From the IMG/VR virus record IMGVR_UViG_3300006217_000028: DNA of 64,000 nt. One strand, 5' to 3'. Made by a program: the position numbers and the translations under genes. The stretch's first letter is position 1, and every line of letters starts with the position of its first letter. Positions 29,459 to 63,618 of this stretch are shown piece after piece. The notes under the pieces were generated by a model that had not been told where the DNA came from, ran no database searches, and saw nothing but the letters and a program-made list of their open reading frames with translations. This DNA comes from a virus (lineage: Duplodnaviria > Heunggongvirae > Uroviricota > Caudoviricetes).

Positions 29459-30400
29459 ATGAAAAACCTTGCTGTATCCGGCGCTTTGCAAAAGAAAATT
29501 AGCATGGCCGGACTGAAATTGAAAAAATACTCGCCAGAGATCCTGTTGATTGGTGGGGTTGTAGGGGTGGTGGCCACGATCGTGTTGGCCTGTCGTGCTA
29601 CTACGAAAGTTGGTGATGCCCTGTCAGAGGTTGCAGAGACCTCCGAAAAAATCAACGGCGCTCTTGCTGCTGGAGTAATTCGCCAGGCTTCTGACCCGGA
29701 AAAAGAAGAAAAGTATACGGAGGATGATGCCAAGCAAGACATGACTATTGCATATGTTCATACAGCGGTCAGGTTTGCGAAACTGTATGGTCCGGCGGCT
29801 CTTCTTGGCGCAGTGTCTATCTCCAGTATAGTCCTCTCCCACAATATCATGAATAAGCGCAATCAAGCTGTTTCTGCAACATTGGCAGCTGTTACAGCCA
29901 GCTACAGTGGTTATCGTAAGAGAGTAGCCGAGCGTTTCGGTGACGAGGTTGAGCGTGAACTCAAATATGGCATCAAAGCTCGGAAGTTTGAGGAAACGGT
30001 TACAGATGAGAAAGGCAAGGAAAAGAAAGTAAAAAGCACTGTTAATGTCGCCGACCCCAATGTAGAGGACCCCTACCTGCTCTGGTTTGATGATGTTACA
30101 AGACACTATGAGCCGAATCACGATTACAAGATGATGTTCCTGAAACAGGCCCAGAATCACGCGAACGACAAGCTCCGGGCGCAGGGATACTTGTTCCTCA
30201 GCGACGTGTATGACATGTTGGATATTGAGCGAACAAAAATGAGTCAGTGCGTAGGCTGGGTCTACCGGCCAGAGGATGACAGCCGGGACAACTATGTTGA
30301 CTTTGGTATCCAGGAGCTGAACAAGGTTTCCGGAGACACATACGAGCCCTCTATTTCGTTGTGCTTCAACGTGGATGGCAATATTCTCGATATGATTTGA
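29459..30400 (+). CDS. Membrane-anchored protein, paralogue family member 3 (313 aa)
   Basis: SPEILLIGGVVGVVATIVLACRATTKVGDAL plus the conserved core (NKRNQAVSATLAAV; GWVYRPEDD). Confidence 0.6.
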   Translation: MKNLAVSGALQKKISMAGLKLKKYSPEILLIGGVVGVVATIVLACRATTKVGDALSEVAETSEKINGALAAGVIRQASDPEKEEKYTEDDAKQDMTIAYVHTAVRFAKLYGPAALLGAVSISSIVLSHNIMNKRNQAVSATLAAVTASYSGYRKRVAERFGDEVERELKYGIKARKFEETVTDEKGKEKKVKSTVNVADPNVEDPYLLWFDDVTRHYEPNHDYKMMFLKQAQNHANDKLRAQGYLFLSDVYDMLDIERTKMSQCVGWVYRPEDDSRDNYVDFGIQELNKVSGDTYEPSISLCFNVDGNILDMI

Positions 30401-38016: not shown

Positions 38017-39582
38017 ATGAGTATTGAACTTCGTAATCACCAGCTTGACGCAGTGCAGCGAATGCGTAACGGCTGTATCCTTTGCGGCGGGGTCGGTTCT
38101 GGCAAGTCCAGGGCGGCCCTGTCCTATTATTATCTTGAACAAGGCGGCGATCCCATCAGTTTGACGGGCGGCGAATATATGCCAATGGATGATACCAGAA
38201 TTCAAGACCTATATATCATCACTACCGCCAGAAAGCGCGATACGCTGGAATGGAACGGTGAACTCATACCGTTTCTGATGACCGCTGGCACTGAGAGCAA
38301 ACTATACAATCATAAAGTAATAATAGATTCCTGGAACAATATAGGAAAGTATTCGGATGTTACAGATGCTTTCTTTATATTTGATGAACAGAGGGTGGTT
38401 GGCTCTGGCGCATGGGTCAAAGCGTTCCTAAAAATCACCATGCGGAACAACTGGATTCTTTTATCAGCAACCCCAGGGGACACATGGTCTGACTATATTC
38501 CGGTGTTCATTGCTAACGGATTCTATAAAAATCGAACGGAGTTTATCCGCGAGCATATCATTTATAAGCGGTTCAGCAAGTTCCCGCAAGTAGACCGGTA
38601 TGTTAACACCAAAAGGCTTATTCGACTACGCGACCGCATCTTGGTAGACATGGATTTCGACAGACAAACTGTTTCCCATCACGAGGATGTACATGTCGGG
38701 TATGATGTTCTTGCCTATAAAGCGATAAAACGTGACCGTTGGAATCCGTTCGAGGATAAACCCATCAAAGACGCAAATGAGTTCTTTCGACTTCAAAGAA
38801 AGCTGGTAAACTCTGACGAGTCTCGCAGCGTCGCGGTTTTGGAGCTGATGGAAAAACATCCCAAAGCCATCATCTTCTATAACTTCGACTACGAGCTTGA
38901 TATTCTGAAAGAACTGGGTTACGCTGAAGGGACAGAAGTGGCAGAGTGGAACGGCCATAAGCATCAACCCATACCAGAAGGCGACGCTTGGGTCTACCTG
39001 GTTCAGTATAACGCCGGCTGTGAAGGATGGAACTGCGTTAAGACAGATACCATCATTTTCTACTCACTGAACTACAGCTATAAGGTGATGGAGCAAGCTT
39101 CTGGACGGATAGACAGGATGGACACGCCGTATAAGGATTTGTATTACTATCATCTGAAGTCAAACAGTTGGATTGACATCGAGATCAGTAAGTCGTTGGC
39201 TAATAAAAAAGACTTTAATGAGGGGGCGCATCGAGCAAAGGTGAAAAAGCAATTTGAAGAGGATGCGATAGCGGCTAAAATAGCACAGCGGCGAAGGCAG
39301 GTTCTTGTCCATAGCGTTATCTACTATCGGATGAATGATAACATTGTGGATGATCAAACCTGGTCGAAATGGGCGCTTGAGCTGGAAGAACTGCAAAAGG
39401 CATACCCCGAGATTGCCGCCAGCCTTCCTTATGCTGAAGAATTCAAAGACTTCGATCACTCCAGCGGCTACAATTTGCCTCTGGACGACCCGTGGGCTGT
39501 AAAAAAAGCGAAACAACTATTACAATGGGAAGGGAAAGGTTCTACGTATGGGACGCAAACTGAATTCGGAAACGCCGCTTGA
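38017..39582 (+). CDS. SF2 helicase (DEAD/SNF2-like phage-associated helicase)
   Basis: 521 aa. HQLDAV...CGGVGSGKS (motif I). FIFDEQ (motif II). LLSATPG (motif III). Confidence 0.65.
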   Translation: MSIELRNHQLDAVQRMRNGCILCGGVGSGKSRAALSYYYLEQGGDPISLTGGEYMPMDDTRIQDLYIITTARKRDTLEWNGELIPFLMTAGTESKLYNHKVIIDSWNNIGKYSDVTDAFFIFDEQRVVGSGAWVKAFLKITMRNNWILLSATPGDTWSDYIPVFIANGFYKNRTEFIREHIIYKRFSKFPQVDRYVNTKRLIRLRDRILVDMDFDRQTVSHHEDVHVGYDVLAYKAIKRDRWNPFEDKPIKDANEFFRLQRKLVNSDESRSVAVLELMEKHPKAIIFYNFDYELDILKELGYAEGTEVAEWNGHKHQPIPEGDAWVYLVQYNAGCEGWNCVKTDTIIFYSLNYSYKVMEQASGRIDRMDTPYKDLYYYHLKSNSWIDIEISKSLANKKDFNEGAHRAKVKKQFEEDAIAAKIAQRRRQVLVHSVIYYRMNDNIVDDQTWSKWALELEELQKAYPEIAASLPYAEEFKDFDHSSGYNLPLDDPWAVKKAKQLLQWEGKGSTYGTQTEFGNAA

Positions 39583-39790: not shown

Positions 39791-40004
39791 CGTGGTTATT
39801 GTAAAAGTCGATCCCTTCGTCGACAGGCATTACCTATACACCGGAAAAAGGAAGGCTGCCTTTATGACCGGCATAGTGGAGTTTGTATCTGAGCGGTGGA
39901 TAACGGTCATGCTGTTAAGCGACAAAAACCGTTCTCCGCTATACCGAGAGTCTTTCTGGAAGGAAAACGTTTACAAAAAACGCAGAAGGGGATATCAAAA
40001 ATGA
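39777..40004 (+). CDS. Hypothetical protein (75 aa)
   Basis: RBS AAGGAGGTGG before ATG 39777. Confidence 0.4.
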   Translation: MKTGDVVIVKVDPFVDRHYLYTGKRKAAFMTGIVEFVSERWITVMLLSDKNRSPLYRESFWKENVYKKRRRGYQK

Positions 40005-40366
40005 TTGACGCATCTCAAATCAATTGGAACATCATTGCGGTGGACTTTGACGGCACGTTGTGTGAGAACAAATATCCGAAGATAGGCGAACCGAATGAGC
40101 AGATCATCGCTTACATTCGCGGGATGAAAAAACTAGGCGCCCGGTTAATTCTTTGGACATGCCGTGCTGGGAAACTCCTCCAGGATGCGGTGGAGTGGTG
40201 TAGTGAACGGGGTATCGTCTTTGACGCCGTGAATGAGAATCTTCCGGACATCATCGAATATTTCGGCGGCGATACAAGGAAGGTCTACGCCCATGAGTAC
40301 ATAGATGATAAGAACTGCAAATTATTCGACTTGCCTTACAAGGCCGAGAGAGGAGAAATCAAATGA
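40001..40366 (+). CDS. HAD-superfamily hydrolase (putative nucleotidase/phosphatase)
   Basis: 121 aa. IIAVDFDGTLC is HAD motif I (DxDGT). Size and motifs resemble small 5-prime(3-prime)-deoxyribonucleotidases. Confidence 0.5.
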   Translation: MIDASQINWNIIAVDFDGTLCENKYPKIGEPNEQIIAYIRGMKKLGARLILWTCRAGKLLQDAVEWCSERGIVFDAVNENLPDIIEYFGGDTRKVYAHEYIDDKNCKLFDLPYKAERGEIK

Positions 40367-45467: not shown

Positions 45468-46154
45468 ATGGATATTTTAGTTGGAAAACGCAATCAGGGT
45501 AAAACGACGCATTTGATTGAAATGTCAGCGGCTGGGAAAGGAATTATTGTGACACCGAGTGAGCGGAGCGTCAAGTACATTATCAATCGGGCCAAGGAAA
45601 TGAAGCTAGATATTCCCGAACCAATTAGTTGGGGTCGGTTAGTTTTGCCCGGTTATCATCGTGGTTACAGAGGCCCCTTCCTTCTCGATGAACTTGGCGG
45701 AATCCTAAGGGGGCTTGAAATCGAAACCGCAATTCTCGATGATGAATGTAATGTCGAGAATCTGTCTGGTGAACCGTTGCACTACGGTGATAGGCTGACT
45801 GAAAAGATCCGGGAGAGTGCAAAGGATTTCAACAAGCTTTCGGACTTTGACAAGTTTGTCCTAAATAACGGGTATCGGTATGAAACTCGGGAGGCGTTGC
45901 AAGCTGGATATGACCGTCACTGGAAAGCAACCCATGATATTTTGGTGACAATTGAGGAGTTTCTCGCAGAAGCTGAAAAGAAACCGAGTGATCCGGCCAC
46001 TGGTGTATATGAAGTCCTTGTCAGCCTTGTTGAGGATAAGAAACTCCGTCCCAGAGAAGTTCTCAGTTATGCGCACTTCCGTTGGTGTCTCGACGCTCCG
46101 GAGGCGATTGTCGCTTGGCAAACGTTTTCAGATTATGTTCATGAGCATGGGTGA
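45468..46154 (+). CDS. P-loop NTPase-like hypothetical protein (228 aa)
   Basis: GKRNQGKTT Walker-A-like motif. RBS GAAGGAGG. Confidence 0.5.
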   Translation: MDILVGKRNQGKTTHLIEMSAAGKGIIVTPSERSVKYIINRAKEMKLDIPEPISWGRLVLPGYHRGYRGPFLLDELGGILRGLEIETAILDDECNVENLSGEPLHYGDRLTEKIRESAKDFNKLSDFDKFVLNNGYRYETREALQAGYDRHWKATHDILVTIEEFLAEAEKKPSDPATGVYEVLVSLVEDKKLRPREVLSYAHFRWCLDAPEAIVAWQTFSDYVHEHG

Positions 46155-46734
46155 GCCGCTCCTCAACTGGAATGAGGTTGAACTGGCTATCAGAAAACTC
46201 CACGAAAATTTTCCAACTGCCGAATTGCTGCTTTCCACGATTGCTCCGTCCGGTCGAGAAGTTTGGGATAGTGTGATACAGCTCTCTACGGACATCAATA
46301 AGGTCGGCCTGCAATTCTCTATTCATAAGTCAACCGACCAGGATCGCAATCTACTTATCCCCTACGAAAATAAGCTGACATTGCGAGAAATCCGAGACAT
46401 TGGGATTGTTTGGTGGCGGGAAACTGGTCGGCATCCTTATCTCAACTATTGCATCGATGGATCCAACAATATGTACGCCGACGTAGAACGGCTTACTACA
46501 TTATTCTCACCAATTATATTTAACTTTACATTCAGCGTGGTCTGCTCCGCGAATGAAAGTATGAAGGAGGCTGGCTTCCGAGAGTTAGATACTGTGAGGG
46601 CTTTTGAAAGTAAGTTTGCAGAAAAAGGCTACAATACACGGGTGTTCAATCCAGATGGTCAGGACGACATTGGTGGCGGCTGCGGCCAGCTCTGGTATGT
46701 TCAGAAATGGATGAGGGAGAACGGACGAAAATGA
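46135..46734 (+). CDS. RlmN/Cfr-family C-terminal domain protein lacking the radical-SAM CxxxCxxC motif (199 aa)
   Basis: MFMSMGEPLLNWNEV matches RlmN MMGMGEPLLNLNNV. LQFSIHKSTDQDRNLLIP matches LAISLHAPNDEIRDEIVP. C-terminal VFNPDGQDDIGGGCGQL matches RKTRGDDIDAACGQL (the methyl-carrying Cys region). No Cys cluster in any upstream frame. First ATG codons overlap the stop of 45468-46154. Confidence 0.5.
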   Translation: MFMSMGEPLLNWNEVELAIRKLHENFPTAELLLSTIAPSGREVWDSVIQLSTDINKVGLQFSIHKSTDQDRNLLIPYENKLTLREIRDIGIVWWRETGRHPYLNYCIDGSNNMYADVERLTTLFSPIIFNFTFSVVCSANESMKEAGFRELDTVRAFESKFAEKGYNTRVFNPDGQDDIGGGCGQLWYVQKWMRENGRK

Positions 46735-46994
46735 CTGATGAACAACTCCTGAATTTTTGCCAAGATCATAATGTAGAAATTAGTTTTAGCTTCGAGTCCA
46801 CATCAAATAGTTATTTATTAAGAATGTGTAGATGGGGTAAAGATAACAAATCTGTAATTCAAAGCAACCATACTATTCATTATGAAGAATGTTCACGCTC
46901 AACATTTTGGCCGTTTATCATCAGAATGACTTTAACTGATATGCTCCATGAAATTGAGCACCAAGAGAGGAGAATAAGTAATGATCAAAATTGA
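46731..46994 (+). CDS. Hypothetical protein (87 aa)
   Basis: Overlaps the upstream stop. Cys/His-containing. Confidence 0.4.
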   Translation: MTDEQLLNFCQDHNVEISFSFESTSNSYLLRMCRWGKDNKSVIQSNHTIHYEECSRSTFWPFIIRMTLTDMLHEIEHQERRISNDQN

Positions 46995-47694
46995 AAACAC
47001 TCAGGTCGTTGGCCTGGAAGCGGCAATCCGTGGGATGCGGAATCCGATGAACAGTTGGGAGAAGTCGGATAGCATATTTGCTAATTCTGGAGATGACGAC
47101 GTACATTATTTGAATGGCGAACCCTGCATTTGCCATCCCAGTAACGAATACAGAGCATATATTGGCCCCAACGACCACGATCTCATGATGCGTTTGGCCA
47201 AGCAAGGGCCTGTTCACGGCAAGTTCCGCCGGATGATTGTGGTGTATGTTGACATCACCGCCCCGCTCTACTGGTGGAAACAGTTCGATACCTATCAGGT
47301 TGGTACTGTAAAAAACTCCTGCTCTACCATGCACAAGATTCACGCTAAGGAGTTTACATTGGAGGATTTTTCCAGCGAGTATCTAATTTGTTGGGGGGAC
47401 GTTGAGAAGGAAGTTCTTGTTGCTATGAAAGGCGTCCTTGACGCTTTGAACTTCGCCCGCAATAAGTATCTTGAAACGAAGGACGAAAGATACTGGTACC
47501 AGATGATCCAACTCCTACCTAACAGCTACAACCAAAAACGGACGGTCATGCTGAACTACGAGGTCCTGGCTAATATCTATCAGTATCGCTGGAATCACAA
47601 GCTGGACGAATGGCGAGAGTTCTGCGTGTGGATAGACTCCCTACCCTACAGCGATATTATCGCTTGCAGTTCATATGGTGAAGACCGTGAATAA
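46981..47694 (+). CDS. ThyX-like (flavin-dependent thymidylate synthase fold) protein with substituted RHR motif
   Basis: 237 aa. HGKFRRMIVVYVDITAPLYWWKQF matches ThyX [25 protein letters not shown]. At the ThyX RHRxxSxxxxSxRY position the sequence reads DTYQVGTVKNSCSTMH. N-terminal MIKIENTQVVGLEAAIRGMRN and C-terminal RTVMLNYEVLANIYQYR also align to ThyX. Confidence 0.5.
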   Translation: MIKIENTQVVGLEAAIRGMRNPMNSWEKSDSIFANSGDDDVHYLNGEPCICHPSNEYRAYIGPNDHDLMMRLAKQGPVHGKFRRMIVVYVDITAPLYWWKQFDTYQVGTVKNSCSTMHKIHAKEFTLEDFSSEYLICWGDVEKEVLVAMKGVLDALNFARNKYLETKDERYWYQMIQLLPNSYNQKRTVMLNYEVLANIYQYRWNHKLDEWREFCVWIDSLPYSDIIACSSYGEDRE

Positions 47695-47896
47695 GCAGCT
47701 GAGAAAGCGGTATAACCTCTGGCTATTCAAGAAGTATGGTTTTAACCGGGGACCATTCTTCGAGCGAATTCCTACGATTTACAAGTTGATTCCGCTGTGG
47801 TCGCCATCTTTGTATCATCACTGCGAAGGAACACAAATTTGTGAGCGGGTTATTCAAGGTCTTGAAGAAGGAATTAAAAAATATGAGCGAGGTTAA
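47675..47896 (+). CDS. Hypothetical protein (73 aa)
   Basis: Overlaps the 3-prime end of the previous gene. Weak signals. Confidence 0.3.
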   Translation: MVKTVNKQLRKRYNLWLFKKYGFNRGPFFERIPTIYKLIPLWSPSLYHHCEGTQICERVIQGLEEGIKKYERG

Positions 47897-48068
47897 CTAT
47901 CCGACTGATATTTTGGTAGTTGATGGTATGGGAGTATCAGTTGAAGAGACTATGGAAATTATTAAGGCACATAAGGAGGGTTATGGGCCTAATTCTTTCC
48001 ATGACGTCCCTTTTGACATATACATCATTAAAAAATTGGAGGTACCTATCTATGAAATTCTTTGTTGA
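47883..48068 (+). CDS. Hypothetical protein (61 aa)
   Basis: Internal ATG of track ORF 47841-48068. Confidence 0.3.
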   Translation: MSEVNYPTDILVVDGMGVSVEETMEIIKAHKEGYGPNSFHDVPFDIYIIKKLEVPIYEILC

Positions 48069-48984
48069 GAAAATTGAAAAGACCTACACTCGCTACGGCG
48101 CGGAATACACAGAAGTTGAACGCCGCCTCCGGCTTGATCGAATCATCATCTGCGGTGTAGCAGCCATCGTTGCTCTCGGACTGATATTTACCAGCTTCAC
48201 TGTTGTTGGGGCGGGCCATACTGGCGTGGTGTCCACGTTTGGTCAGGTAAGCGAGGACGTTTTGCAAGAGGGGTTCCACTTCAAGGCGCCCTGGCAGAAA
48301 GTCACCAAGATGGACAACCGGATCGTCAAGCTGGAGGTATCCACTGAGGCTTTCAGCTCAGACCTGCAAACGGTCAACGTGAACTTGGCCGTCAACTATC
48401 GCGTTGACACGGCGAAGTCTTTTTCCATTGTCAAGAACGTGGGCACCAACTATGAGGATGTACTTATTACGCCAGCAGTCAACGAGGTTATGAAGTCGAT
48501 TATGGCCAGCTATACTGCTGAGCAGAGCATTACCAACCGAAACATCATTTCTACAGCCTTGCTCGATGAATTGAACGATAAACTTTCAGACAGCGGAATT
48601 TATGTTTCAGATATTAACATCATTGACTTCGACTTTAGCGACGTATATGTGGCAGCTATCGAATCCAAGCAGGTTGCAGAACAAGAGAAACTTCGGGCAA
48701 AAATCGAACAGGAGCAGCTTACTATGGAAAAAGAGTCGGAGTCTGCCCGTCGGATAATCGACGCCGAAGCCGCTGCGGAGGTTGCCAAAATTGAGGCGGA
48801 AGCGGCGGCGTATGCTGGTGAGAAAGAGGCTGCCGCAAATGAAAAGATTGCGGAATCTCTGACACGGCCGCTCATCGAGTATTACAAAATCCAGCAGTGG
48901 GATGGTAAGCTCCCTTCGGTTACAGGAGCGGATACCATTATAACGATGGGTAACGAGAAATCGGACGAGAGCAAGGAGGAGTAA
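48052..48984 (+). CDS. SPFH / band-7 (prohibitin-like) domain membrane protein
   Basis: 310 aa. N-terminal transmembrane helix. GHTGVVSTFGQV...GFHFKAPWQKV...VNYRVD are SPFH core motifs. C-terminal Ala/Glu coiled coil. RBS GGAGGT. Confidence 0.7.
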   Translation: MKFFVEKIEKTYTRYGAEYTEVERRLRLDRIIICGVAAIVALGLIFTSFTVVGAGHTGVVSTFGQVSEDVLQEGFHFKAPWQKVTKMDNRIVKLEVSTEAFSSDLQTVNVNLAVNYRVDTAKSFSIVKNVGTNYEDVLITPAVNEVMKSIMASYTAEQSITNRNIISTALLDELNDKLSDSGIYVSDINIIDFDFSDVYVAAIESKQVAEQEKLRAKIEQEQLTMEKESESARRIIDAEAAAEVAKIEAEAAAYAGEKEAAANEKIAESLTRPLIEYYKIQQWDGKLPSVTGADTIITMGNEKSDESKEE

Positions 48985-48987
48985 TCA

Positions 48988-49194
48988 GTGGAAATTATAA
49001 CTCCGGGAAATCTCGAACGATTACACAACCCGAAGATATTTACGTGTAAAAGATGTGGATGTGTTTTCAAAGCTACCGATAAGGAGTATGTCTATAGCGA
49101 TTATATAGCCGCTACCCATGATGGCATATACGCTTCATGTACGTGTCCGTGCTGTGAAGACACTGTATATCTTTACTCATCAGACTTGGAATAA
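48988..49194 (+). CDS. Cys-rich zinc-ribbon protein (68 aa)
   Basis: CKRCGC...CTCPCC. GTG start right after the upstream stop. Confidence 0.45.
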   Translation: MEIITPGNLERLHNPKIFTCKRCGCVFKATDKEYVYSDYIAATHDGIYASCTCPCCEDTVYLYSSDLE

Positions 49195-49218
49195 TCCATT
49201 ATACAGTCGACTTTACTT

Positions 49219-49249
49219 CGTGAAAATTACAGACGCTATTGTGAAAGAG
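49219..49249 (+). promoter_or_regulatory. Conserved promoter-like motif, copy 10 (CGTGAAAATTACAGACGCTAT-TGTGAAAGAG)
   Basis: See the motif family. Followed by hairpin AGAGCTGAGAGAAATCTTGGCTCTTT. Upstream of 49303. Confidence 0.45.
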
Positions 49250-49302
49250 CTGAGAGAAATCTTGGCTCTTTTATATTTTTATTAGGAAGGGGCAAGGTTA
49301 GT

Positions 49303-49551
49303 ATGAACGAAACTGGCAAAGAAATCTTGTGTACCGGGTGCGCCCACAGAGAAGTATGCGAGCGAAAAAACGAATACCAGCACGCCGCGGTACTTGCAAA
49401 CGACATCATCGAAGAATTGATGGATAGAGTACGTTTACAGTTGCGCACTATTCCTTGGGTTCATGTACGGTCACCTGAAGTAAATTGCGATTATTTCATG
49501 AGGCGGCGCAAAATGGCGACGGTATGGGACAACGGAGGTACCAATGAGTAA
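49303..49551 (+). CDS. Hypothetical protein (82 aa)
   Basis: RBS AGGAAGGGG. Confidence 0.45.
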   Translation: MNETGKEILCTGCAHREVCERKNEYQHAAVLANDIIEELMDRVRLQLRTIPWVHVRSPEVNCDYFMRRRKMATVWDNGGTNE

Positions 49552-50506
49552 AGAATACGATGAATACCTACAAGAGCATCGATCAAACCTCTGCTTTGGT
49601 CTGGAATGGCTTAAGCAGAATCTTCCTGAGGTGCTTGAAGGAGCGTACAATATTGACTGGCTCGTTCAGAACGCCCATGACCATTCTAAGTACGGGTCGG
49701 AAGAATACAACGCCTACGATACATATTTCTACACAAACATCAAATCGTATCGCGTCCAGCAGGATTTTCAGCTAGCCTGGCTCCATCACATCCATCATAA
49801 CCCTCACCATTGGCAGCACTGGGTGCTTATCAACGACGATCCAGCAGAAGGAACTGTCTGCCTTGAGATGCCGCGATGCTATATCATTGAAATGATTTGC
49901 GACTGGTGGTCTTTCAGTTGGGCTAAGAATGATTTGACGGAGATATTTCGTTGGTATGACGAGCATCGGGAACACATACTGCTGCATAAGAACACTCGAG
50001 AGATGGTCGAGGATATTCTTGGCAAAATGGCGGAAAAACTTGACTATACGGGCGAGTTGTGTCATCATGGTGTAAAAGGGCAGAAGTGGGGTGTACGCAA
50101 TGGGCCGCCGTATCCTTTAGGCGAAGGTGATAAGTCGGCGGAGGAGAGAAAAGCTGATGGTAATAGAACTAACATCGTCAAACAGGCGATTCAGTCGGGA
50201 AAAGTTTCGACTAAAATTAACCGTGAAAAGCAAAAAAGACATACACAAGATGACCACACGCCAGGAAAAAGCTATATTCATGGAGATTTAATAGAGGCGC
50301 AACACCTTGTGGATACACTCAGTGGTACAGGGAAAGCACTTGAAGGGCGAGACGGAGCTTGGAACCATCGCGAAAGAGTTTCACATAGCGACATAATCGG
50401 TACGCATGTAGACGAAAAGGGTGTCGAAACTCCATCTAAAAATGCGATAATCGTTTATTCCAAGACTGGAAGTCACATTTATCCAGCAAAGAAGAAAGGA
50501 GACTAA
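49544..50506 (+). CDS. Hypothetical protein (320 aa) with His-rich segment HHIHHNPHHWQHW
   Basis: RBS GGAGGT. The C-terminal 20 aa recur in degenerate form at 50841-50900. Confidence 0.5.
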   Translation: MSKEYDEYLQEHRSNLCFGLEWLKQNLPEVLEGAYNIDWLVQNAHDHSKYGSEEYNAYDTYFYTNIKSYRVQQDFQLAWLHHIHHNPHHWQHWVLINDDPAEGTVCLEMPRCYIIEMICDWWSFSWAKNDLTEIFRWYDEHREHILLHKNTREMVEDILGKMAEKLDYTGELCHHGVKGQKWGVRNGPPYPLGEGDKSAEERKADGNRTNIVKQAIQSGKVSTKINREKQKRHTQDDHTPGKSYIHGDLIEAQHLVDTLSGTGKALEGRDGAWNHRERVSHSDIIGTHVDEKGVETPSKNAIIVYSKTGSHIYPAKKKGD

Positions 50507-50508
50507 AT

Positions 50509-50721
50509 ATGGAACTTACACAGGCGTTGGAAGGAAAACGTGTTCGAATCGTGGACATCGACGACAAGGTGTTCGAGGGAACTGTAACTGACTATTTCTT
50601 TCCTGAAGACAACGAGCCAGAAGGTGTCTCTGGGATAGCATTAGAAGACTGCCCACAGCGTCCGGGAGTGTGGCTTGGCTTTAATGAGCCCGAAATCAAG
50701 TCTATCGAGGTTATAGCATAG
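50509..50721 (+). CDS. Hypothetical small protein (70 aa)
   Basis: RBS AAAGGAGA. Has a truncated paralogue at 50896-51000. Confidence 0.5.
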   Translation: MELTQALEGKRVRIVDIDDKVFEGTVTDYFFPEDNEPEGVSGIALEDCPQRPGVWLGFNEPEIKSIEVIA

Positions 50722-50840
50722 GGGATTTGAATTATACTCAGCAGCCGGTAGACGAGTTGAGCGGAACGGGACAAGCAAAAAAAAGATAGATACGGTAACA
50801 ACTGGGTCAATAAAGAGGCCGTTATGAAACCGATTCTGCT

Positions 50841-51000
50841 ATGATTGTCTACTCAAAGACGGGTACCCACATTTACCCGAGAAAGGACGATAAAAATGAT
50901 TGAACTCAGAACACTCGAGGGCGAAAGAGTCTGTTTAGTTAGCACTAGCGGAGAGATATATGAGGGTAAGGTTGGGGATTACATTTTTCCCGAGAGGTGA
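50841..51000 (+). pseudogene. Degenerate tandem duplicate of 50447-50721 (gene tail plus small gene), truncated by stops
   Basis: MIVYSKTGTHIYPRKDDKND vs AIIVYSKTGSHIYPAKKKGD. MIELRTLEGERVCLVSTSGEIYEGKVGDYIFPER* vs MELTQALEGKRVRIVDIDDKVFEGTVTDYFFPEDNEPEG.... Confidence 0.45.
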
Positions 51001-51010
51001 TTTCCTGATA

Positions 51011-51163
51011 TGGATGAGAGCTATCAAGAGGTTCGCTATGATCTATACTGTAAGAACTGTAAACACTTTCGCTTACATGAGTATGAAGAGCCTTGCAACG
51101 AATGCCTAGAGTGTCCAGCGAGGCTTGACTCAAACATTCCAGAACGATTTGAAAAGAAGTAAA
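51011..51163 (+). CDS. Cys-rich small protein (50 aa)
   Basis: MDESYQEVRYDLYCKNCKHFRLHEYEEPCNECLECPARL.... Confidence 0.3.
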
Positions 51164-51181
51164 CAGGTGACGAAGGAAAAA

Positions 51182-51218
51182 GAGCTTAGAGAAATCTAGG
51201 CTCTTTCTTCATTTTTTA
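51182..51218 (+). terminator. Rho-independent terminator
   Basis: AGAGCTTAGAGAAATCTAGGCTCT followed by TTCTTCATTTTTT. Confidence 0.45.
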
Positions 51219-51224
51219 TAGGAG

Positions 51225-51410
51225 ATGAAAAAACACATGATAAAGCAAATCACATATCAAGACGGCCTTTCCTCTTTTTGGGTGGAGCGAGCTGAAGATG
51301 GATATTTGGCTTATCTGTCATTCAAGCACTATTTACGTGGAATAACGTCGCCAATGCTCATGGCTCACTTGGGTCAAAACGGGCTAAGGGCGGCGTATTT
51401 TTCTGTGTAA
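51225..51410 (+). CDS. Hypothetical protein (61 aa; alternative start 51237)
   Basis: RBS GGAG. Confidence 0.35.
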   Translation: MKKHMIKQITYQDGLSSFWVERAEDGYLAYLSFKHYLRGITSPMLMAHLGQNGLRAAYFSV

Positions 51411-51482
51411 TCATTACGGGTGCTTTTGGAACGAAGCCTATTGGTCATATCTTAAAACTATAAAAACAAGGAGTAACTAACG

Positions 51483-51740
51483 ATGAAAACTTTGAAAAAC
51501 AAAATTGCAGTGGCACTTTCCGCGCTCTTTCTGATGGGGGTCCTGGCTGGGTGCAACAAGACGTTTATAGACACAACATATGCGTTCGACTATGCCTATG
51601 TGGAACTTCCCAATGGCACGGTAGTCGAAGGTAAAGTTCAGTCATGGAAAGACTTTGATGACGGAGATCAGATTCAAGTGACCATAGACGGAAAAACATA
51701 TCTTACAAACAGCACACGGGTCGTACTTGTAACGAGGTGA
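51483..51740 (+). CDS. Lipoprotein (85 aa)
   Basis: Signal peptide with lipobox MKTLKNKIAVALSALFLMGVLAGC. RBS AAGGAG. Confidence 0.55.
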   Translation: MKTLKNKIAVALSALFLMGVLAGCNKTFIDTTYAFDYAYVELPNGTVVEGKVQSWKDFDDGDQIQVTIDGKTYLTNSTRVVLVTR

Positions 51741-51747
51741 TATAAGG

Positions 51748-52080
51748 ATGAAGGTTAACGTTTTAGGAACTGATTACACGATTGTTTTGGTTAGCGACGC
51801 CGAAGACAAACGGCTATCCAACATTGATGGGTTTTGTGACGAGTCCACGAGCGAAATTCGTGTAGATAATTACGAATCTCATCGGGGCGACCCGCACAAC
51901 AAAGCAAACTTGGATAAGCAAATCAAAAAGAACATCCGGCATGAATTGATTCACGCGTTTCTGTTTGAGAGCGGTCTTGCCGAGAACAGCCCCTGGGCAC
52001 AAAACGAAGAATTGGTCGACTGGATTGCGATACAGGGGCCAAAGCTGTGGAAAGCATGGCAGGAGGCGGATGCTGTATGA
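51748..52080 (+). CDS. HExxH zinc-metallopeptidase-like protein (110 aa)
   Basis: RHELIHAFL motif. RBS GAGGTGATATAAGG. Confidence 0.4.
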   Translation: MKVNVLGTDYTIVLVSDAEDKRLSNIDGFCDESTSEIRVDNYESHRGDPHNKANLDKQIKKNIRHELIHAFLFESGLAENSPWAQNEELVDWIAIQGPKLWKAWQEADAV

Positions 52081-52601
52081 TTATGTCCGGTCTAGAAATT
52101 CACCAACACATCGGCAAAGAGATTGTTATCAATCCATTCGATGAATCCAGGCTCAATCCGAACAGCTACAACCTACGGTTGGCTGACGAGCTGCTGGTAT
52201 ACAACAATAAAGTCCTGTTTATGGATGAGGATAACCCCGTAACACACATTGCGATTCCTAGAACCGGCTTACTTCTGGAGCCGGGAAAACTATATCTTGG
52301 GCGGACCTTGGAGTACACAAAAACCGAAGGGTTTGTACCAATGCTTGAGGGACGCTCTTCTGTTGGTAGACTCGGGTTGTTCATCCATGTGACAGCAGGT
52401 TTCGGGGATGTCGGTTTTGCTGGCTACTGGACGCTGGAAATGCACTGTGTTCAGCCAGTGATGGTATTTCCGGGGGTGGAAATATGCCAGATTTACTACC
52501 ATACACTGCAAGGAGATTATAAGCCTTATCAGTCCGGCAAATATCAAAACAATAATGGTGTGCAGCCAAGTATGCTATGGAAAGACTTTCTTGCTAAATA
52601 A
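52077..52601 (+). CDS. dcd: dCTP deaminase
   Basis: 174 aa. GRSSVGRLGLFIHVTAGFGDVGFAGYWTLEMHC aligns with E. coli Dcd [33 protein letters not shown]. Start overlaps the upstream stop (ATGA). Confidence 0.7.
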   Translation: MIMSGLEIHQHIGKEIVINPFDESRLNPNSYNLRLADELLVYNNKVLFMDEDNPVTHIAIPRTGLLLEPGKLYLGRTLEYTKTEGFVPMLEGRSSVGRLGLFIHVTAGFGDVGFAGYWTLEMHCVQPVMVFPGVEICQIYYHTLQGDYKPYQSGKYQNNNGVQPSMLWKDFLAK

Positions 52602-52880: not shown

Positions 52881-52991
52881 GATGATTGGGTACTACACGG
52901 ACTACGGCTACATGGGATATGTTGGCGGTGAGTGGATGCTTTTTGCTACCGAGGATGAATACTACGAATATCTTAAGGAGGATGCGGCGTG
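52881..52991 (+). CDS. Small Tyr-rich peptide (36 aa)
   Basis: RBS AAAGGAGACAGCG. Stop overlaps the next GTG start. Confidence 0.3.
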
Positions 52992-53621
52992 AATACCAAA
53001 GTACAGGCTCACAAGGAAATCTGTGAGTATTTGAACAACTTGTACGAACGCAAGAACCATGACTATGGTGACAGCTTTCATCAGACCTTTGTTGAGGAAG
53101 GGATGGCAATGGTCCGAATCCGGCTGGGGGACAAGCTTTCTCGGTTTAAGACTTTGACTCTTAATGGCAGCCAACAGGTGCAGGATGAGTCGGTACGCGA
53201 CACTTTGCTCGACCTGGCTAACTATGCCATCATGACTGTGATGGAGATGGAGATGGATTTAGTCGACATGAATGAATCGAAAACCGATGAAGAATCTGAC
53301 ATCACAATTCGTGATCCCTTGAGCATGGTTCAAGCGAATGACGAACATTCAGTAGTTTCGACTCCTTATTGTTTTGGTTATCACATGGCCGCAAAAGAGT
53401 TTCTCGAAGAGGTCAATGACCATATTGCGAAATATGGTTTAATCAGTGTAGCTGATGTAAGGCGTATGCGAAATGAACCTGCAAAAGCGGAAGATACATA
53501 TCTCGGCTGGATATCAAAAATCTCTGTTAAAAATATAACTCAAGGGTTTTCCAAAAAGAGAGGTGGTAGCTATTATTGGGTTAAGTTTCCGACCCCAGTA
53601 AAATTAGATGGCGTAAAATAA
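52989..53621 (+). CDS. DUF1599-like phage protein (210 aa)
   Basis: N-terminal KNHDYGDSFHQTF...GMAMVRIRLGDKLSRF resembles the DUF1599 domain found in phages. Confidence 0.4.
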   Translation: MNTKVQAHKEICEYLNNLYERKNHDYGDSFHQTFVEEGMAMVRIRLGDKLSRFKTLTLNGSQQVQDESVRDTLLDLANYAIMTVMEMEMDLVDMNESKTDEESDITIRDPLSMVQANDEHSVVSTPYCFGYHMAAKEFLEEVNDHIAKYGLISVADVRRMRNEPAKAEDTYLGWISKISVKNITQGFSKKRGGSYYWVKFPTPVKLDGVK

Positions 53622-56290: not shown

Positions 56291-56554
56291 ATGGAACGAC
56301 TAACTAAACCTGATAGCGACTATTGTCATGACAGATGCGGCAGTGTAAATGGTTGCACAAGGCTTACGGGCGACAAAAAGCGCTGCCGTGACTACGACTT
56401 GTACGAAAGGTTGAAGATTTATGAGAATGTTTGGCCCGCCATAGTCCTATTAGAGATAGAAAGCTCATTGCTACAAGGCAACGGAGCTGAGACGCTAATC
56501 AACGATCTACTGAATCGGCATCTATATCAGGAGGTATCAAAAAGTAATGAATAA
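56291..56554 (+). CDS. Hypothetical protein (87 aa)
   Basis: RBS GAGGAGGT. Confidence 0.45.
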   Translation: MERLTKPDSDYCHDRCGSVNGCTRLTGDKKRCRDYDLYERLKIYENVWPAIVLLEIESSLLQGNGAETLINDLLNRHLYQEVSKSNE

Positions 56555-56711
56555 CACTAAAAGGGACAAGACGGTAATCGGAACTGGTACCGGTTTTGAA
56601 CGAATTCGGCGCATAACCGGTTATCTGGTCGGCACTATTGACCGCTGGAACAACTCCAAAAGAGCTGAGGAACGCGACCGTGTCAAGCATGAGATGGGAG
56701 GCAAACAATGA
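56547..56711 (+). CDS. Small basic protein (54 aa)
   Basis: RBS AGGAGGT 10 nt upstream. Stop overlaps the next ATG. Confidence 0.35.
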   Translation: MNNTKRDKTVIGTGTGFERIRRITGYLVGTIDRWNNSKRAEERDRVKHEMGGKQ

Positions 56712-58514: not shown

Positions 58515-58660
58515 ATTTTGTGAAAGGATGTGGTATACTGTACGTGCGAGACAATTCAATAAATCTTCTAGGCTTTATGGGACTAATACTCTGGCAAAGA
58601 GTGTTTTTCCTCTTATCTCGTATACCCTAAAGCCTAGGGAATGGGAATTGTCTCGCAAAC
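58515..58660 (+). promoter_or_regulatory. Promoter (TTGTGA, 17 nt, TGgTATACT) followed by a long imperfect inverted repeat forming a structured 5-prime leader for gene 58740
   Basis: Arms GCGAGACAATTCAATAAATCTTCTAGGCTTTATGGG (58546-58581) and CCCTAAAGCCTAGGGAATGGGAATTGTCTCGC (58625-58656) share a perfect 12-bp outer stem GCGAGACAATTC/GAATTGTCTCGC and a 10-bp inner stem CTAGGCTTTA/TAAAGCCTAG around a loop of about 43 nt. Confidence 0.5.
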
Positions 58661-58739
58661 AATGAGGGATACACGTTTGCGGGTGCGTCTCTTCATCGGG
58701 GCGCACTTTTATATTCTCGCTCAAATCGGAGGAATACTC

Positions 58740-59804
58740 ATGCCAGAGCAATACGAGTTTTCAGAGATGATAAACACGAATAATTTCTCAATAATGGAAT
58801 ACGAGGCGCCAATTGACCTTGCGACAAACTCCCAATTTAATAAACTGGCACTTAATCCACAGCAGAAAATTCAAGTTGGCGCTTTACTTCAACATACTCC
58901 TGCTGTAGCTGCCGCTAAAGCTATGAGTGACGTATACGTCCTTACCGTTCCGAAGGGACTGCCATATACCTTAATGGAACTTAAGCGTGGCGGTTATGCG
59001 GGAATATTTGTTGGCCAGGATAGTAAGATTGTTGGAATACCCGCTCTCCAAAAAATGACAGCTCCTGTTGCGGCTGTCGGCGCTTTTACCGCTATGGCGG
59101 CTGTGTCGGGGCAATATTTCCTATCGCAAATCAATGACGAGATGAAAATGATGCGTCAGAGCGTTGATGAAATTCTGAACTTTTTGAATGACGATAAACA
59201 ATCCGAGCTGTTGGCAGAGGTGAGTTTTGTTAAATATGCATTCCAAAACTACAGCTCAATTATGCAGTGTGACACGCAGCGGATTGCCACTATTATAGGG
59301 CTACAAGCTGCAAAAAAAGTCGCCACAAAAAATGTCGAATTCTATACAAGAGGGCTTGATAGTGCTCTGTCTAATAAGACAGATGTATTCGAATCCATTG
59401 ATGCTGCCGAAAAGGCTAAAGATAGTCTTGATCTATCTATCCAGCTATCCACTATGAGTTCTTTGCTCGAAGTATACTATTCACAGAATTTTGACCCTAC
59501 CTATTTGAAATGGGTCGAGTCTTCAGAAATAAAGTATATAACCGACCACTCCAAAAAAGTCAATGATATTTTTAACCGGCTGACTGGTAGGCTTGATGGT
59601 GTGGGAAAGGGAATCTTTTCCAAAGCGGTTAAAGATGACCGAAGGTCTGCTTATCAGGAAAAGCTCTCAGCATTGTTCGAGTCTCTTAGCGCGGATGATG
59701 AGCCGCAACTTTGTAAATCTTTAAGATCGGCACTAGGGGTTATTACCTCTGAAACAAAGCTTTACCTGACCAAAAACGGGGATGCGTACTTAAAAGCTAT
59801 ATAG
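58740..59804 (+). CDS. Hypothetical protein (354 aa)
   Basis: RBS GGAGGAATACTC. The track ORF starts at 58641 inside the inverted repeat. Confidence 0.55.
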   Translation: MPEQYEFSEMINTNNFSIMEYEAPIDLATNSQFNKLALNPQQKIQVGALLQHTPAVAAAKAMSDVYVLTVPKGLPYTLMELKRGGYAGIFVGQDSKIVGIPALQKMTAPVAAVGAFTAMAAVSGQYFLSQINDEMKMMRQSVDEILNFLNDDKQSELLAEVSFVKYAFQNYSSIMQCDTQRIATIIGLQAAKKVATKNVEFYTRGLDSALSNKTDVFESIDAAEKAKDSLDLSIQLSTMSSLLEVYYSQNFDPTYLKWVESSEIKYITDHSKKVNDIFNRLTGRLDGVGKGIFSKAVKDDRRSAYQEKLSALFESLSADDEPQLCKSLRSALGVITSETKLYLTKNGDAYLKAI

Positions 59805-60798: not shown

Positions 60799-63618
60799 AT
60801 GGGGGCAATTTTGAACGAGATAGAAGATGTGCTGATGCACTATGGTATGCCGAGGCGTTCTGGACGGTATCCCTGGGGGTCAGGGGAAAATCCCTATCAG
60901 CATAGCGGCGACTTTCTCAGCCGTGTGTATGAGCTTAGAAAGCAAAACTTTACTTACACAGATGAGGATGGTAAGCTGTGGACTGGTGATACCGCTATCG
61001 CGAAGTCTATGGGCCTTACCAGCAGTCAGCTCAGAACTCAGATGAGTCTAGCAAAGGATGAGCGAAGATCACTACAAGTAGCCACGGCCAAGGGGCTGCG
61101 CGAGAAAGGGTACAGCCTTAATGAAATTGCCGAAAAGATGGGTTTCGCAAATGATTCATCTGTGCGCTCCCTACTCAACGAGAATGCTGAGGCTCGTATG
61201 AACAAGGCGAGAAATGTTGCCGATATTCTGCGGAATGAACTGGAAACAAAGAAAATGATCGACGTTGGCGCCGGTGTTGAGCGTGAACTCGGGGTCTCTC
61301 GGGAAAAACTCGAAGAGGCCCTCTATATTTTGCAGATGGAAGGTTATCCCGTCTACGGTGGTGGCGTTGCGCAGGCTACCAACAAAGGCAAGCAAACCAA
61401 CCTGAAAGTTCTATGCCAACCGGGTACGGAACACAAAGAGATGTACGAATACGGTGAGATACAGTCGCTTATCGACTATACTTCCGATGATGGCGGCGAA
61501 ACGTTTCGCAAGGCGTTTCAGTACCCTGAAAGTATGGATTCTGGCCGGCTACAAATTCGTTATGCGGAAGATGGCGGTGTCAACAAAGACGGCGTGATTG
61601 AACTTCGCCGAGGCGTTTCTGACTTGTCGCTAGGCGAATCCAACTATGCTCAGGTTCGAATTCTTGTCGACGGAAACCGGTATATCAAAGGTATGGCGGT
61701 TTATGGAGATGATGCTGACTTCCCTCCAGGGGTCGATGTAATCTTTAACACAAACAAGAAAAGCGGCGTTCCAAAGATGGATGTACTAAAACCCATCAGC
61801 GCTGACCCCGACAATCCCTTTGGGTCCCTTATTAAAGAGCATGGCGGGCAAAGCACCTACATCGACAAAGATGGTAAAGAAAGGCTGTCTCTTATCAATA
61901 AGCGCGCTGAAGAAGGCGATTGGGGGGATTGGAGCGACAATCTTCCCTCCCAGTTCTTATCAAAGCAAAGTATGCCGCTTATCAAGAAACAGCTTAATCT
62001 GGCTGCCGCTGATAGAGAGGCTGAATTCAACGAAATCTGTGCTCTTACCAATCCAACCGTTAAGAAACGGCTGTTACAATCGTTCGCTGATGATTGCGAT
62101 GCAGCGGCTGTGCATCTGAAAGCAGCGGCATTGCCAAGACAAAAGTATCAGGTAATTCTACCATTGACTTCCGTCAAGGACGCAGAAGTATATGCTCCTA
62201 ATTACCATGATGGCGAGACTGTGGCTCTTATTCGGTACCCCCATGGGGGTACTTTCGAGATACCTATCCTTAAGGTAAATAACAAGCTTCCTGAAGGGCA
62301 GAGAGTGCTTGGAAAGACCCCAGCTGACGCTATCGGAATAAATAAAAAGGTTGCTGATCGGTTATCAGGCGCTGACTTTGATGGGGACACGGTTATGGTA
62401 ATTCCCTGTAATTCCTCCCGGTCTAATGTGAAGATTACCTCGACTCCTCCTTTGAGGGGGCTTGAGGGATTTGACCCCAAAGATAAGTACCAGTATGACA
62501 CAAAGACCATGGACTCTGCCGGTAATGTTCACTATTACCGTAATGGGGTCGAATTCAAAGCGATGCGGAATACCCAGACAGAGATGGGTAAGATTTCCAA
62601 CTTGATTACGGATATGACGTTGAAAGGAGCCTGTCAGGATGAAATAGCCCGTGCCGTCCGGCACAGTATGGTTGTCATCGATGCTGAAAAACATGGCTTG
62701 GACTATAAGCGCAGCGCCCAGGAAAATGGTATATCCGCCCTTAAAAAGAGCTACCAGTACCGAGTTGATGAAGACGGTACTGTTCATGACGGAGCGTCAA
62801 CCCTTATTTCCAGGGCCAGCTCTGAGAAGTCGGTACCCAAGCGGCGTGGCAGTCCACAGATAGACCCTGATACTGGCGAGCAGAGCTGGAAACTTGCTAG
62901 AGATAGTGATCGTTTCTACACTGTGGAAAAAGTTAACAAGCGAACCGGCGAAGTAAAAACCGTGCAAAAAGAGCGAACTCAGCAGAGCACACAAATGGCC
63001 GAGACTCGTGACGCTAGGCGTCTGTCCTCCGGTACAAAACAGGAAGAAGCCTACGCTGATTATGCTAATCGGATGAAAGCACTTGGCAATAAAGCGAGAA
63101 AAGAGATGGTTTCGACTGGCCGCATAAAGTATGATGCCTCAGCTAAAGCGGTCTACAAGAAAGAAGTCGATTCTCTTAATGCAAAGCTGAATGTATCCTT
63201 GAAGAATGCTCCACGCGAACGCCAGGCTCAGACAATGGCCAACGCTACCATGAAGGCTAAAAAGCAAGAGTATCCAGACATGACTAAGGCTGAAGAGAAA
63301 AAAGCGAGTCAGCAAGCTCTTACTGCATCGCGCTTAAAAGTTGGTGCACAGCGCAGCCCGATTAAAATTACTGATCGTGAATGGGAAGCGATTCAAGCAG
63401 GCGCAATCACTGAGAATCAACTGTCAAAAATTCTTAACAATGCGGACATTGACGACATCCGGAAAAGAGCAACGCCTCGGGCAACGACACAGCTCAGCCA
63501 GTCTAAAATCAGTTTGATCTCCTCTCTCAAGGCGTCTGGCTACACTACGTCGCAAATCGCTGCTCGTCTCGGCATATCGTCTTCTACTGTAACAAAGTAT
63601 CTCAATGGAAAGGGGTGA
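60799..63618 (+). CDS. Putative YonO-like single-polypeptide two-barrel RNA polymerase with N- and C-terminal sigma-region-4-like HTH modules
   Basis: 939 aa. ...ALIRYPHGGTFEIPILKVNNKLPEGQRVLGKTPADAIGINKKVADRLSGADFDGDTVMVIP aligns with the beta-prime DPBB catalytic loop [48 protein letters not shown] (R.P, EP.L, ADFDGD..MaV.P). HTH-like GYSLNEIAEKMGFANDSSVRSLL at aa about 95-120. GYTTSQIAARLGISSSTVTKYL at the extreme C-terminus. Size is close to SPbeta YonO. Confidence 0.45.
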   Translation: MGAILNEIEDVLMHYGMPRRSGRYPWGSGENPYQHSGDFLSRVYELRKQNFTYTDEDGKLWTGDTAIAKSMGLTSSQLRTQMSLAKDERRSLQVATAKGLREKGYSLNEIAEKMGFANDSSVRSLLNENAEARMNKARNVADILRNELETKKMIDVGAGVERELGVSREKLEEALYILQMEGYPVYGGGVAQATNKGKQTNLKVLCQPGTEHKEMYEYGEIQSLIDYTSDDGGETFRKAFQYPESMDSGRLQIRYAEDGGVNKDGVIELRRGVSDLSLGESNYAQVRILVDGNRYIKGMAVYGDDADFPPGVDVIFNTNKKSGVPKMDVLKPISADPDNPFGSLIKEHGGQSTYIDKDGKERLSLINKRAEEGDWGDWSDNLPSQFLSKQSMPLIKKQLNLAAADREAEFNEICALTNPTVKKRLLQSFADDCDAAAVHLKAAALPRQKYQVILPLTSVKDAEVYAPNYHDGETVALIRYPHGGTFEIPILKVNNKLPEGQRVLGKTPADAIGINKKVADRLSGADFDGDTVMVIPCNSSRSNVKITSTPPLRGLEGFDPKDKYQYDTKTMDSAGNVHYYRNGVEFKAMRNTQTEMGKISNLITDMTLKGACQDEIARAVRHSMVVIDAEKHGLDYKRSAQENGISALKKSYQYRVDEDGTVHDGASTLISRASSEKSVPKRRGSPQIDPDTGEQSWKLARDSDRFYTVEKVNKRTGEVKTVQKERTQQSTQMAETRDARRLSSGTKQEEAYADYANRMKALGNKARKEMVSTGRIKYDASAKAVYKKEVDSLNAKLNVSLKNAPRERQAQTMANATMKAKKQEYPDMTKAEEKKASQQALTASRLKVGAQRSPIKITDREWEAIQAGAITENQLSKILNNADIDDIRKRATPRATTQLSQSKISLISSLKASGYTTSQIAARLGISSSTVTKYLNGKG

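Follow-up and report, generated by a model that had tools for sequence, protein, structure and literature searches.

A ThyX-fold protein without the RHR signature in a gut phage represents a large, deeply diverged family

The window analyzed here is the whole 64,000-nucleotide stretch of the Caudoviricetes record IMGVR_UViG_3300006217_000028 and carries an integrase gene at 21031-22218. The region of interest belongs to the early half, devoted to replication, of a temperate phage whose hosts are gut Firmicutes. A megablast of the region against a phage collection returned no match, and no close relative is present there. An initial annotation, made from the DNA alone, had singled out four open reading frames (ORFs), all of which are present on the + strand: a HAD hydrolase gene (40001-40366), a ThyX-like gene (46981-47694), a dCTP deaminase gene (52077-52601), and a DUF1599 gene (52989-53621). 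Nothing sets the deaminase, DUF1599, and HAD genes apart from other members of their known families. What is new is the ThyX-like gene, an intact member of a very large, uncharacterized, and deeply diverged branch of the ThyX/Thy1 superfamily.

Fold and active site of the ThyX-like protein

The ORF at 46981-47694 (+) encodes a protein of 237 amino acids that belongs to PHROG 6721 ("unknown function") and lacks the RHR signature of ThyX. Its relationship to ThyX is beyond the reach of direct comparison: the protein had no match in Pfam (E up to 10), in NCBIfam, or among PDB sequences (phmmer and a 28-sequence profile), a 9-sequence ThyX profile run with filters off against all ORFs of the window missed it, and the 28-sequence alignment gave no significant hhalign score with a single ThyX sequence. 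From this shallow alignment (28 sequences, at least 60% identity), AlphaFold2 produced a model with a pLDDT of 58, which was not used. Two more homolog searches, seeded by distant phage members, produced an alignment of 94 sequences that spans three subfamilies at 24 to 86% identity to the query, and the model computed from it reached a pLDDT of 91.3 and a pTM of 0.87. With this model, all 50 matches listed by Foldseek against the PDB were ThyX proteins, with a probability of 1.00, and a search of a viral structure library returned three uncharacterized relatives followed by phage ThyX proteins. The model of the window protein thus has the three-dimensional fold of ThyX (Thy1).

Matches of more divergent family members point the same way. 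The Pfam Thy1 model (PF02511) was matched by 6 of 23 such members, the best being gp68 of phiCTP1 (E 4.5e-5; profile positions 39-185 of 191; 23.8 bits against a cut-off of 24.8), a cellular member matched the thyX model TIGR02170 at an E value of 0.0025, and hhalign of the family against the ThyX profile gave a P value of 0.027 over 150 columns in the expected register. Neither the window protein nor the best family member reached the curated thresholds of PF02511 and TIGR02170. From these matches and the predicted structure, we conclude that the family is a remote homolog of ThyX with the ThyX fold.

Residues were mapped onto Thermotoga maritima ThyX, whose sequence was verified as exact, through a profile-profile alignment with a small ThyX profile built from phage genes, and the mapping was checked across 510 family members. 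The conserved motifs of the family are IRGMRNPMNSW, DITAPLYWWK.FDTY.VGTV.NSCSTMHKI, and R203..H206...E210. Six T. maritima residues are kept in all three subfamilies, namely, S88 (S115 in the window protein), P151 (P180), N163 (N192), R174 (R203), H178 (H206), and E182 (E210), and the equivalents of S88, R174, H178, and E182 are invariant or nearly so. H53 (H79) is kept in most members (77% of the main subfamily), and subfamilies A and B also have N85 (N112), where subfamily C has Ser. In T. maritima ThyX, the retained residues lie around the uracil ring and the site where flavin and folate stack. The 94-sequence alignment, whose subfamilies are 24 to 44% identical to the window protein, has ten invariant positions, and those lining the ThyX pocket are very strongly conserved across the three subfamilies. 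Two variable inserts are present, a loop rich in Cys and Asp at residues 31-60 and another at residues 135-150.

The replaced residues form a long list: R74 (K100 in the window protein, W in subfamily B), R78 (T104), H79 (Y105), R80 (Q106, K in most members), E86 (S113), R90 (M117), Y91 (H118), R147 (I176, I or V in the family), and R165 (E194). The ThyX signature RHRxxSxxxxSxR is absent, and of the aligned segment in the window protein, T104-Y105-Q106-V-G-T-V-K-N-S-C-S115-T-M117, the second Ser alone corresponds to it. An RHR triplet occurs anywhere in the sequence in only 2 of 515 family proteins. Among the dUMP-binding arginines of T. maritima ThyX (R74, R78, R90, R147, and R174), R174 is the sole one with a kept equivalent, R203. 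In ThyX structures, the lost arginines and the RHR motif hold the dUMP phosphate and the ADP moiety of FAD in place. Subfamily C, which is phiCD211-like, reads RQWDRYH where ThyX reads RQWFRHR, and because R74, Q75, and R78 are still present, this subfamily is, judged by these residues, intermediate between ThyX and the main branch.

The initial annotation had described a ThyX-fold protein with an altered active site and had named structure prediction and active-site comparison among the ways to check its proposal; both the fold and the remodeling of the active site are confirmed by that route. Its statement that the protein aligns to ThyX over its length is correct in light of the AlphaFold2/Foldseek results and the Thy1 matches of divergent members, although standard searches do not detect the similarity. 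It was also right that RHR is absent, but the register of the proposed replacement by DTY is one residue off, since the aligned residues are T104-Y105-Q106 and not D103-T104-Y105.

Family spread and gene neighborhoods

The family is very large. A word-indexed homolog search found at least 8,000 members, all with E values of 0.001 or lower, and an exhaustive search found 3,916 clusters at 50% identity. Pfam domains were absent from the members listed in the first search, and PF02511 was present on 2 of 120 in the search seeded by phiCTP1. The family occurs mainly in prophages of Clostridia. Among cultured phages, it is carried by some that infect Clostridium, Clostridioides, Enterocloster, Fusobacterium, and Desulfovibrio, and in every one of them the gene is "hypothetical" or unannotated. 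Neither Pfam nor NCBIfam has a model for the family, and we found no literature on it. The papers on the carrier phages PMBT24 and FNU1 do not contain the word thymidylate and report no DNA-modification or restriction-digest data; the PMBT24 paper lists a dUTPase and an anaerobic ribonucleotide reductase, and the GenBank record of PMBT24 annotates a dNMP kinase. One family member (P0182) consists of a ThyX-like domain with a C-terminal DUF3310 fusion (E 3.3e-18).

Members about 40% identical to the window protein are cellular, nonphage genes of low-GC (26 to 30%) Firmicutes from gut metagenomes (L019, 10001-12558; L022, 500-3035; L107, 6001-7326). In two lineages, the gene sits between the S10 ribosomal operon and rpsT in an apparent operon with the order ThyX-like gene, 191-amino-acid P-loop kinase gene, and folC. 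The best match of the kinase is to the dTMP kinase model TIGR00041 (E 1.3e-6), and FolC scores 348 bits against a cut-off of 163. In another lineage, the ThyX-like gene lies immediately upstream of a genuine ung gene (319 bits). Comparison of two of these lineages gave identities of 85% for the ThyX-like protein, 86% for RpsT, 68% for the kinase, and 63% for FolC, so that the cellular ThyX-like gene looks like a housekeeping gene under strong constraint. Core operons that also encode FolC and a dTMP-kinase-like kinase, or a place next to Ung, suggest that it takes part in ordinary thymidylate metabolism.

A phmmer census covered 100 loci with a ThyX-like gene and 6 kb on each side of it. The neighbors were HAD (14 loci), NrdD (11), MazG (9), DUF1599 (7), Dut (4), dCTP deaminase (4), and kinases of four query types (2 to 6 each); ThyA or canonical ThyX was found within the 6 kb in none of the 100 loci. 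HAD homologs lie at most 3 kb from the ThyX-like gene in 13 of 93 nonredundant loci and are among the commonest neighbors, and Gmk/Tmk-like kinases and NrdG also occur in phage contexts. In a Desulfosporosinus prophage, the ThyX-like gene is the second gene after a DUF1599 gene; in phiCTP1, the DUF1599 homolog gp74 lies 2.6 kb downstream of gp68; and L105 and L025 are among the loci with DUF1599 homologs near ThyX-like genes. DUF1599 is a recurrent accessory of ThyX and ThyX-like genes alike. Other elements have a guanylate-kinase-like gene after the ThyX-like gene or an RlmN/Cfr-like radical SAM gene of 293 to 296 codons before it. As a separate observation, the helicase encoded at 38017-39582 (+) combines Helicase_C with a C-terminal domain of the NAD+-dependent DNA ligase Ia type (Nlig-Ia, E 7e-27), and helicases of this type are among the commonest upstream neighbors of ThyX-like genes (16 loci).

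Upstream of the ThyX-like gene, the window carries a remnant of an RlmN/Cfr-like radical SAM gene (46144-46734, +), consisting of its C-terminal two thirds (TIGR00048, E 1.3e-9, partial match). The intact gene, of 295 codons, is present in L015 to L017 and also in L018 and L106, and it is found just upstream of ThyX-like genes in several phage lineages. Compared with sister contigs that are 99.9 to 100% identical elsewhere, the window has a deletion of 1,529 bp (junction at 46113-46123, with an 11-bp overlap; compare L015, 7604-9132), which takes out two small genes as well as a DUF488 gene and the start of the radical SAM gene (~89 codons, including its CxxxCxxC cluster motif) and leaves a shortened upstream ORF (45468-46154) in addition to the remnant. 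The deletion could be a natural variant or an assembly artifact.

Partner genes and genome setting

The dCTP deaminase (52077-52601, +; 174 amino acids) matches Pfam DCD (E 1.4e-37) and scores 106.3 bits with TIGR02274 (/PF22769), above the cut-off of 92.8. Among PDB entries, its nearest relatives are the Mycobacterium tuberculosis enzyme 2qxx (E 1.7e-22) and the dUMP-forming bifunctional enzyme 1ogh of Methanocaldococcus jannaschii (E 2.9e-15); monofunctional Escherichia coli Dcd is farther away (E 5e-11), and 4a6a was matched as well. Its active-site stretches SS.GR (EGRSSVGRLG) and TLE align with those of 2qxx, which we take to be bifunctional, even though the structure table names it "deoxycytidine triphosphate deaminase." The window enzyme most resembles the enzymes that combine dCTP deaminase and dUTPase functions, and it likely provides dUTP or dUMP. 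Directly upstream, an ORF of 110 codons (51748-52080, +) has an HExxH motif (RHELIHAF) and a weak match to BSP-type peptidases; its stop codon overlaps the start codon of the deaminase gene, an arrangement that suggests translational coupling.

The DUF1599/Nmad1 protein (52989-53621, +; 210 amino acids) carries its domain at residues 22 to 87 (PF07659, E 9.5e-12, 45.5 bits against a gathering threshold of 25; phrog_1485), and no domain is assigned to its C-terminal half. A comparison with MazG-type pyrophosphatases yielded no match by BLASTP and an E value of 0.025 over 27 columns by hhalign. The HAD protein (40001-40366, +) is a small phosphatase, probably of the BT0820 type, with a VDFDGT motif (2obb, E 6e-21); it scores 102.8 bits with NF046079, for which the equivalog cut-off is 165, and Bacteroides thetaiotaomicron BT0820 itself is uncharacterized. 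The initial family assignments of all three proteins are therefore upheld by their domain matches and motifs.

As had also been pointed out, the ThyX-like, deaminase, DUF1599, and HAD genes share the replication and nucleotide-metabolism half of the phage with its own family B DNA polymerase. This replicase, encoded at 31824-35876 (+), is a D5-like helicase/primase (DUF5906) fused to a family B polymerase whose motifs were read from the sequence, and it matches phrog_4210 ("DNA polymerase") over its full length. It has a Walker A motif, GTGKS, at residue 185, and its polymerase motif C is HIKTDS, where the usual form is DTDS. The further proposal, a joint pathway of the four genes by which a pyrimidine would be replaced or hypermodified, found no support here, as they are dispersed over 13.6 kb among unrelated genes and do not make up a conserved module. 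The 13.6-kb span also led us to reject the idea that the four make up one compact operon: the deaminase and DUF1599 genes are the sole two close together, and the ThyX-like gene lies 4.4 kb from this pair.

Searches of all ORFs of the window gave no match to ThyA, ThyX, Dut, Tmk, or DHFR. Hallmark hypermodification enzymes were not found with Pfam and/or PHROGs among ORFs of at least 160 codons at 20 to 64 kb, where unmatched ORFs, such as 58641-59804, may hide some. The search for DNA-modification families that had been suggested at the outset recovered the DUF1599/Nmad1 domain but, in these ORFs, none of the hallmark families.

Several other genes of the window deserve mention. An ORF of 54 codons (56547-56711, +) is essentially the C-terminal glycyl-radical motif of NrdD (RRITGYLVG...WN..K..E..R); the identical ORF of the sister contigs matches Pfam NRDD, and since the window has neither NrdD nor NrdG, the product may be a stand-alone "spare part" glycyl-radical protein for a host enzyme. 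The protein of 939 amino acids encoded at 60799-63618 (+) matches phrog_4291 ("RNA-dependent RNA polymerase") over its full length and Pfam RdRP weakly, has a C-terminal helix-turn-helix, and is probably a YonO-like single-subunit, two-barrel RNA polymerase; an ORF of Enterocloster phage PMBT24 is annotated in the same way. The gene at 49544-50506 (+) joins DUF5662 (residues 1 to 160) to a C-terminal "Bacterial toxin 50" domain (Ntox50), and in a related prophage (L018) DUF5662 stands by itself. A stretch of less than 4 kb holds three DUF6353 paralogs (26559-27407, 27630-28397, and 29459-30400, all +).

Function and comparison with known systems

The neighbors of the family, namely, FolC, thymidylate- and guanylate-kinase-like kinases, Ung, dUTP-producing enzymes, and DUF1599, make a thymidylate-synthase-type function the most likely one. 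Our working hypothesis, to which we give somewhat less than an even chance, is that the ThyX-like protein is a divergent thymidylate-synthase-type enzyme feeding dTTP synthesis. It would move a one-carbon unit to C5 of a uracil deoxynucleotide with a mode of cofactor and phosphate binding unlike that of canonical ThyX. The phage dCTP deaminase would supply this step with dUTP or dUMP made from dCTP, the HAD phosphatase may trim a nucleotide pool, and the expected outcome would be a larger supply of dTTP for phage replication. We infer the substrate, the cofactor, the product, and the cooperation of the four genes, and several observations weigh against the proposal. The window protein matches no ThyX model, even in unfiltered searches; the cellular kinase scores 28 bits, whereas the trusted score for dTMP kinases is 83; and in the 100 loci of the census, a deaminase gene within 6 kb is confined to 4 sister contigs of the window. 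Moreover, RHR, R90, and R147 are required for FAD and dUMP binding and for activity in the characterized ThyX enzymes, so that with their loss the standard ThyX mechanism cannot apply as such.

The loss of all the phosphate-clamping arginines would be explained if the substrate were not a free 5'-monophosphate, and the enzyme might then modify uracil in deoxyuridine, in a di- or triphosphate, or in DNA or RNA. R74, R78, R80, R90, and R147 are indeed all replaced in the main branch, Ung adjoins the ThyX-like gene in one bacterial lineage, homologs of RlmN/Cfr-like radical SAM RNA methylases adjoin it in several phages, and the downstream kinase could phosphorylate a nucleoside product. We nevertheless consider this explanation unlikely, because subfamily C retains R74 and R78, the conserved basic residues R17, R20, R84, K106, and K119 could take over phosphate binding, the neighbors are largely nucleotide-pool enzymes, and the ThyX-like protein has no nucleic-acid-binding domain. 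The smallest probability of all goes to a noncatalytic ThyX derivative, either a regulator that binds nucleotides or folate or an inhibitor acting as a poison on a host enzyme, for instance ThyX, whose active sites are built across subunits. The loss of the canonical catalytic and cofactor motifs and the lack of a match of the window protein to any enzyme model would fit such a protein, but the strong conservation of the pocket-lining positions and the ten invariant positions do not, and the cellular copies in core operons with metabolic partners make a phage anti-host inhibitor unlikely for the family as a whole.

It is also quite improbable, a little more so than a change of substrate, that the ThyX-like protein makes a noncanonical C5-substituted dUMP, for example, 5-hydroxymethyl-dUMP, by water capture of the exocyclic methylene intermediate without reduction, and that together with the deaminase, the HAD protein, and DUF1599 it provides a modified base against restriction. 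The replaced residues include those near the flavin ADP, and their replacement could abolish the reductive half-reaction while the R174-type activation of uracil is kept. The Pfam name of DUF1599 is "nucleotide modification associated domain 1," the frequent HAD neighbors would be in keeping with such a pathway, and a modified dNMP would also require the adjoining NMP kinases. Set against these points, the cellular orthologs lie in core operons with FolC, a Tmk-like kinase, or Ung and are conserved like a ribosomal protein, and to our knowledge bacteria do not replace thymine. The phage carries an integrase and the family is widespread in prophages, while every case that we know of base replacement at the level of the nucleotide pool comes from virulent phages. 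Hallmark partner enzymes were not found among the scanned ORFs, the deaminase and the ThyX-like gene co-occur solely in the sister contigs, and DUF1599 accompanies canonical ThyX and dUTPase in other viruses as well.

Two enzyme families, ThyA and ThyX, both of them drug targets, are regarded as the basis of thymidylate synthesis. Extending the thymidylate-synthase-type hypothesis, we tentatively put forward, as a possibility well short of the hypothesis itself, that the family is a third, hitherto unrecognized class of thymidylate-forming (or uracil-C5 one-carbon-transferring) enzyme, derived from ThyX with a different solution to cofactor and substrate binding. Some gut Firmicutes of low GC content would use such an enzyme for housekeeping and encode it in one operon with FolC and a kinase dedicated to it, and thousands of Clostridia phages would have borrowed it. 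This ThyX-fold family, a very abundant part of viral dark matter with thousands of variants in gut phages, lacks the signature motif and yet is conserved like a ribosomal protein in bacterial core operons that also encode FolC and a thymidylate-kinase-like enzyme. If it makes dTMP, it revises what flavin-dependent methylation needs and exposes a blind spot in metabolic reconstructions of gut Firmicutes; if it makes another product, no route from ThyX to a modified pyrimidine would be older in the record.

Were a modified pyrimidine the product, the functional analogs would be the ThyA-family dUMP/dCMP hydroxymethylases of phages SPO1, T4, M6, and ViI, whose step is followed by a dNMP kinase. 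These enzymes have an unrelated fold and are accompanied by 5-hmdU DNA kinase, transferases, or glycosyltransferases, none of which was found among the scanned ORFs, and the systems occur in virulent phages. Thymidine hypermodification also needs 5-hmdU DNA kinase and transferases. The known pathway begins with a ThyA-family hydroxymethylase (PMC8989533). The window has no ThyA, and its scanned ORFs of at least 160 codons at 20 to 64 kb yielded neither a 5-hmdU DNA kinase nor tailoring enzymes such as transferases or PLP enzymes. Uracil-DNA phages of the PBS2 type combine dCTP deaminase, dTMP phosphatase, dUMP kinase, and inhibitors of dUTPase and uracil-DNA glycosylase; the window has a deaminase and an uncharacterized HAD phosphatase but no kinase was found in it, and small inhibitors are unrecognizable by the searches used.

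The closest parallels lie with ThyX itself. PolB of polyoxin biosynthesis, a UMP/dUMP C5-methylase (4p5a), is a neofunctionalized ThyX paralog that is still recognizable as such, being found by T. maritima ThyX at an E value of 3.7e-34, whereas the family described here is far more diverged. Compared with canonical ThyX (TM0449, 1o26; Helicobacter pylori, 3ah5; M. tuberculosis, 2af6), it differs in its identity of 12 to 16%, below all curated thresholds, and in the changes of RHRxxS to TY(Q/K)VGT, of R90-Y91 to M-H, of R147 to I or V, and of R165 to E. It resembles ThyX in the order of secondary structures, in the equivalents of H53, N85, S88, P151, N163, R174, H178, and E182, and in a genomic company of DUF1599, dUTP-producing enzymes, and NMP kinases. 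Viruses of Asgard archaea carry a block of dUTPase, ThyX, and DUF1599 that has been read as serving thymidylate synthesis from dUTP (bioRxiv 10.1101/2021.07.29.453957). In that block the ThyX is canonical and the genes are adjacent, whereas here the ThyX-like gene is set apart from the deaminase-DUF1599 pair; common to both is DUF1599 in the company of a thymidylate-synthase-type gene and a dUTP-processing enzyme, the trio in the window being dCTP deaminase, the ThyX-like protein, and DUF1599.

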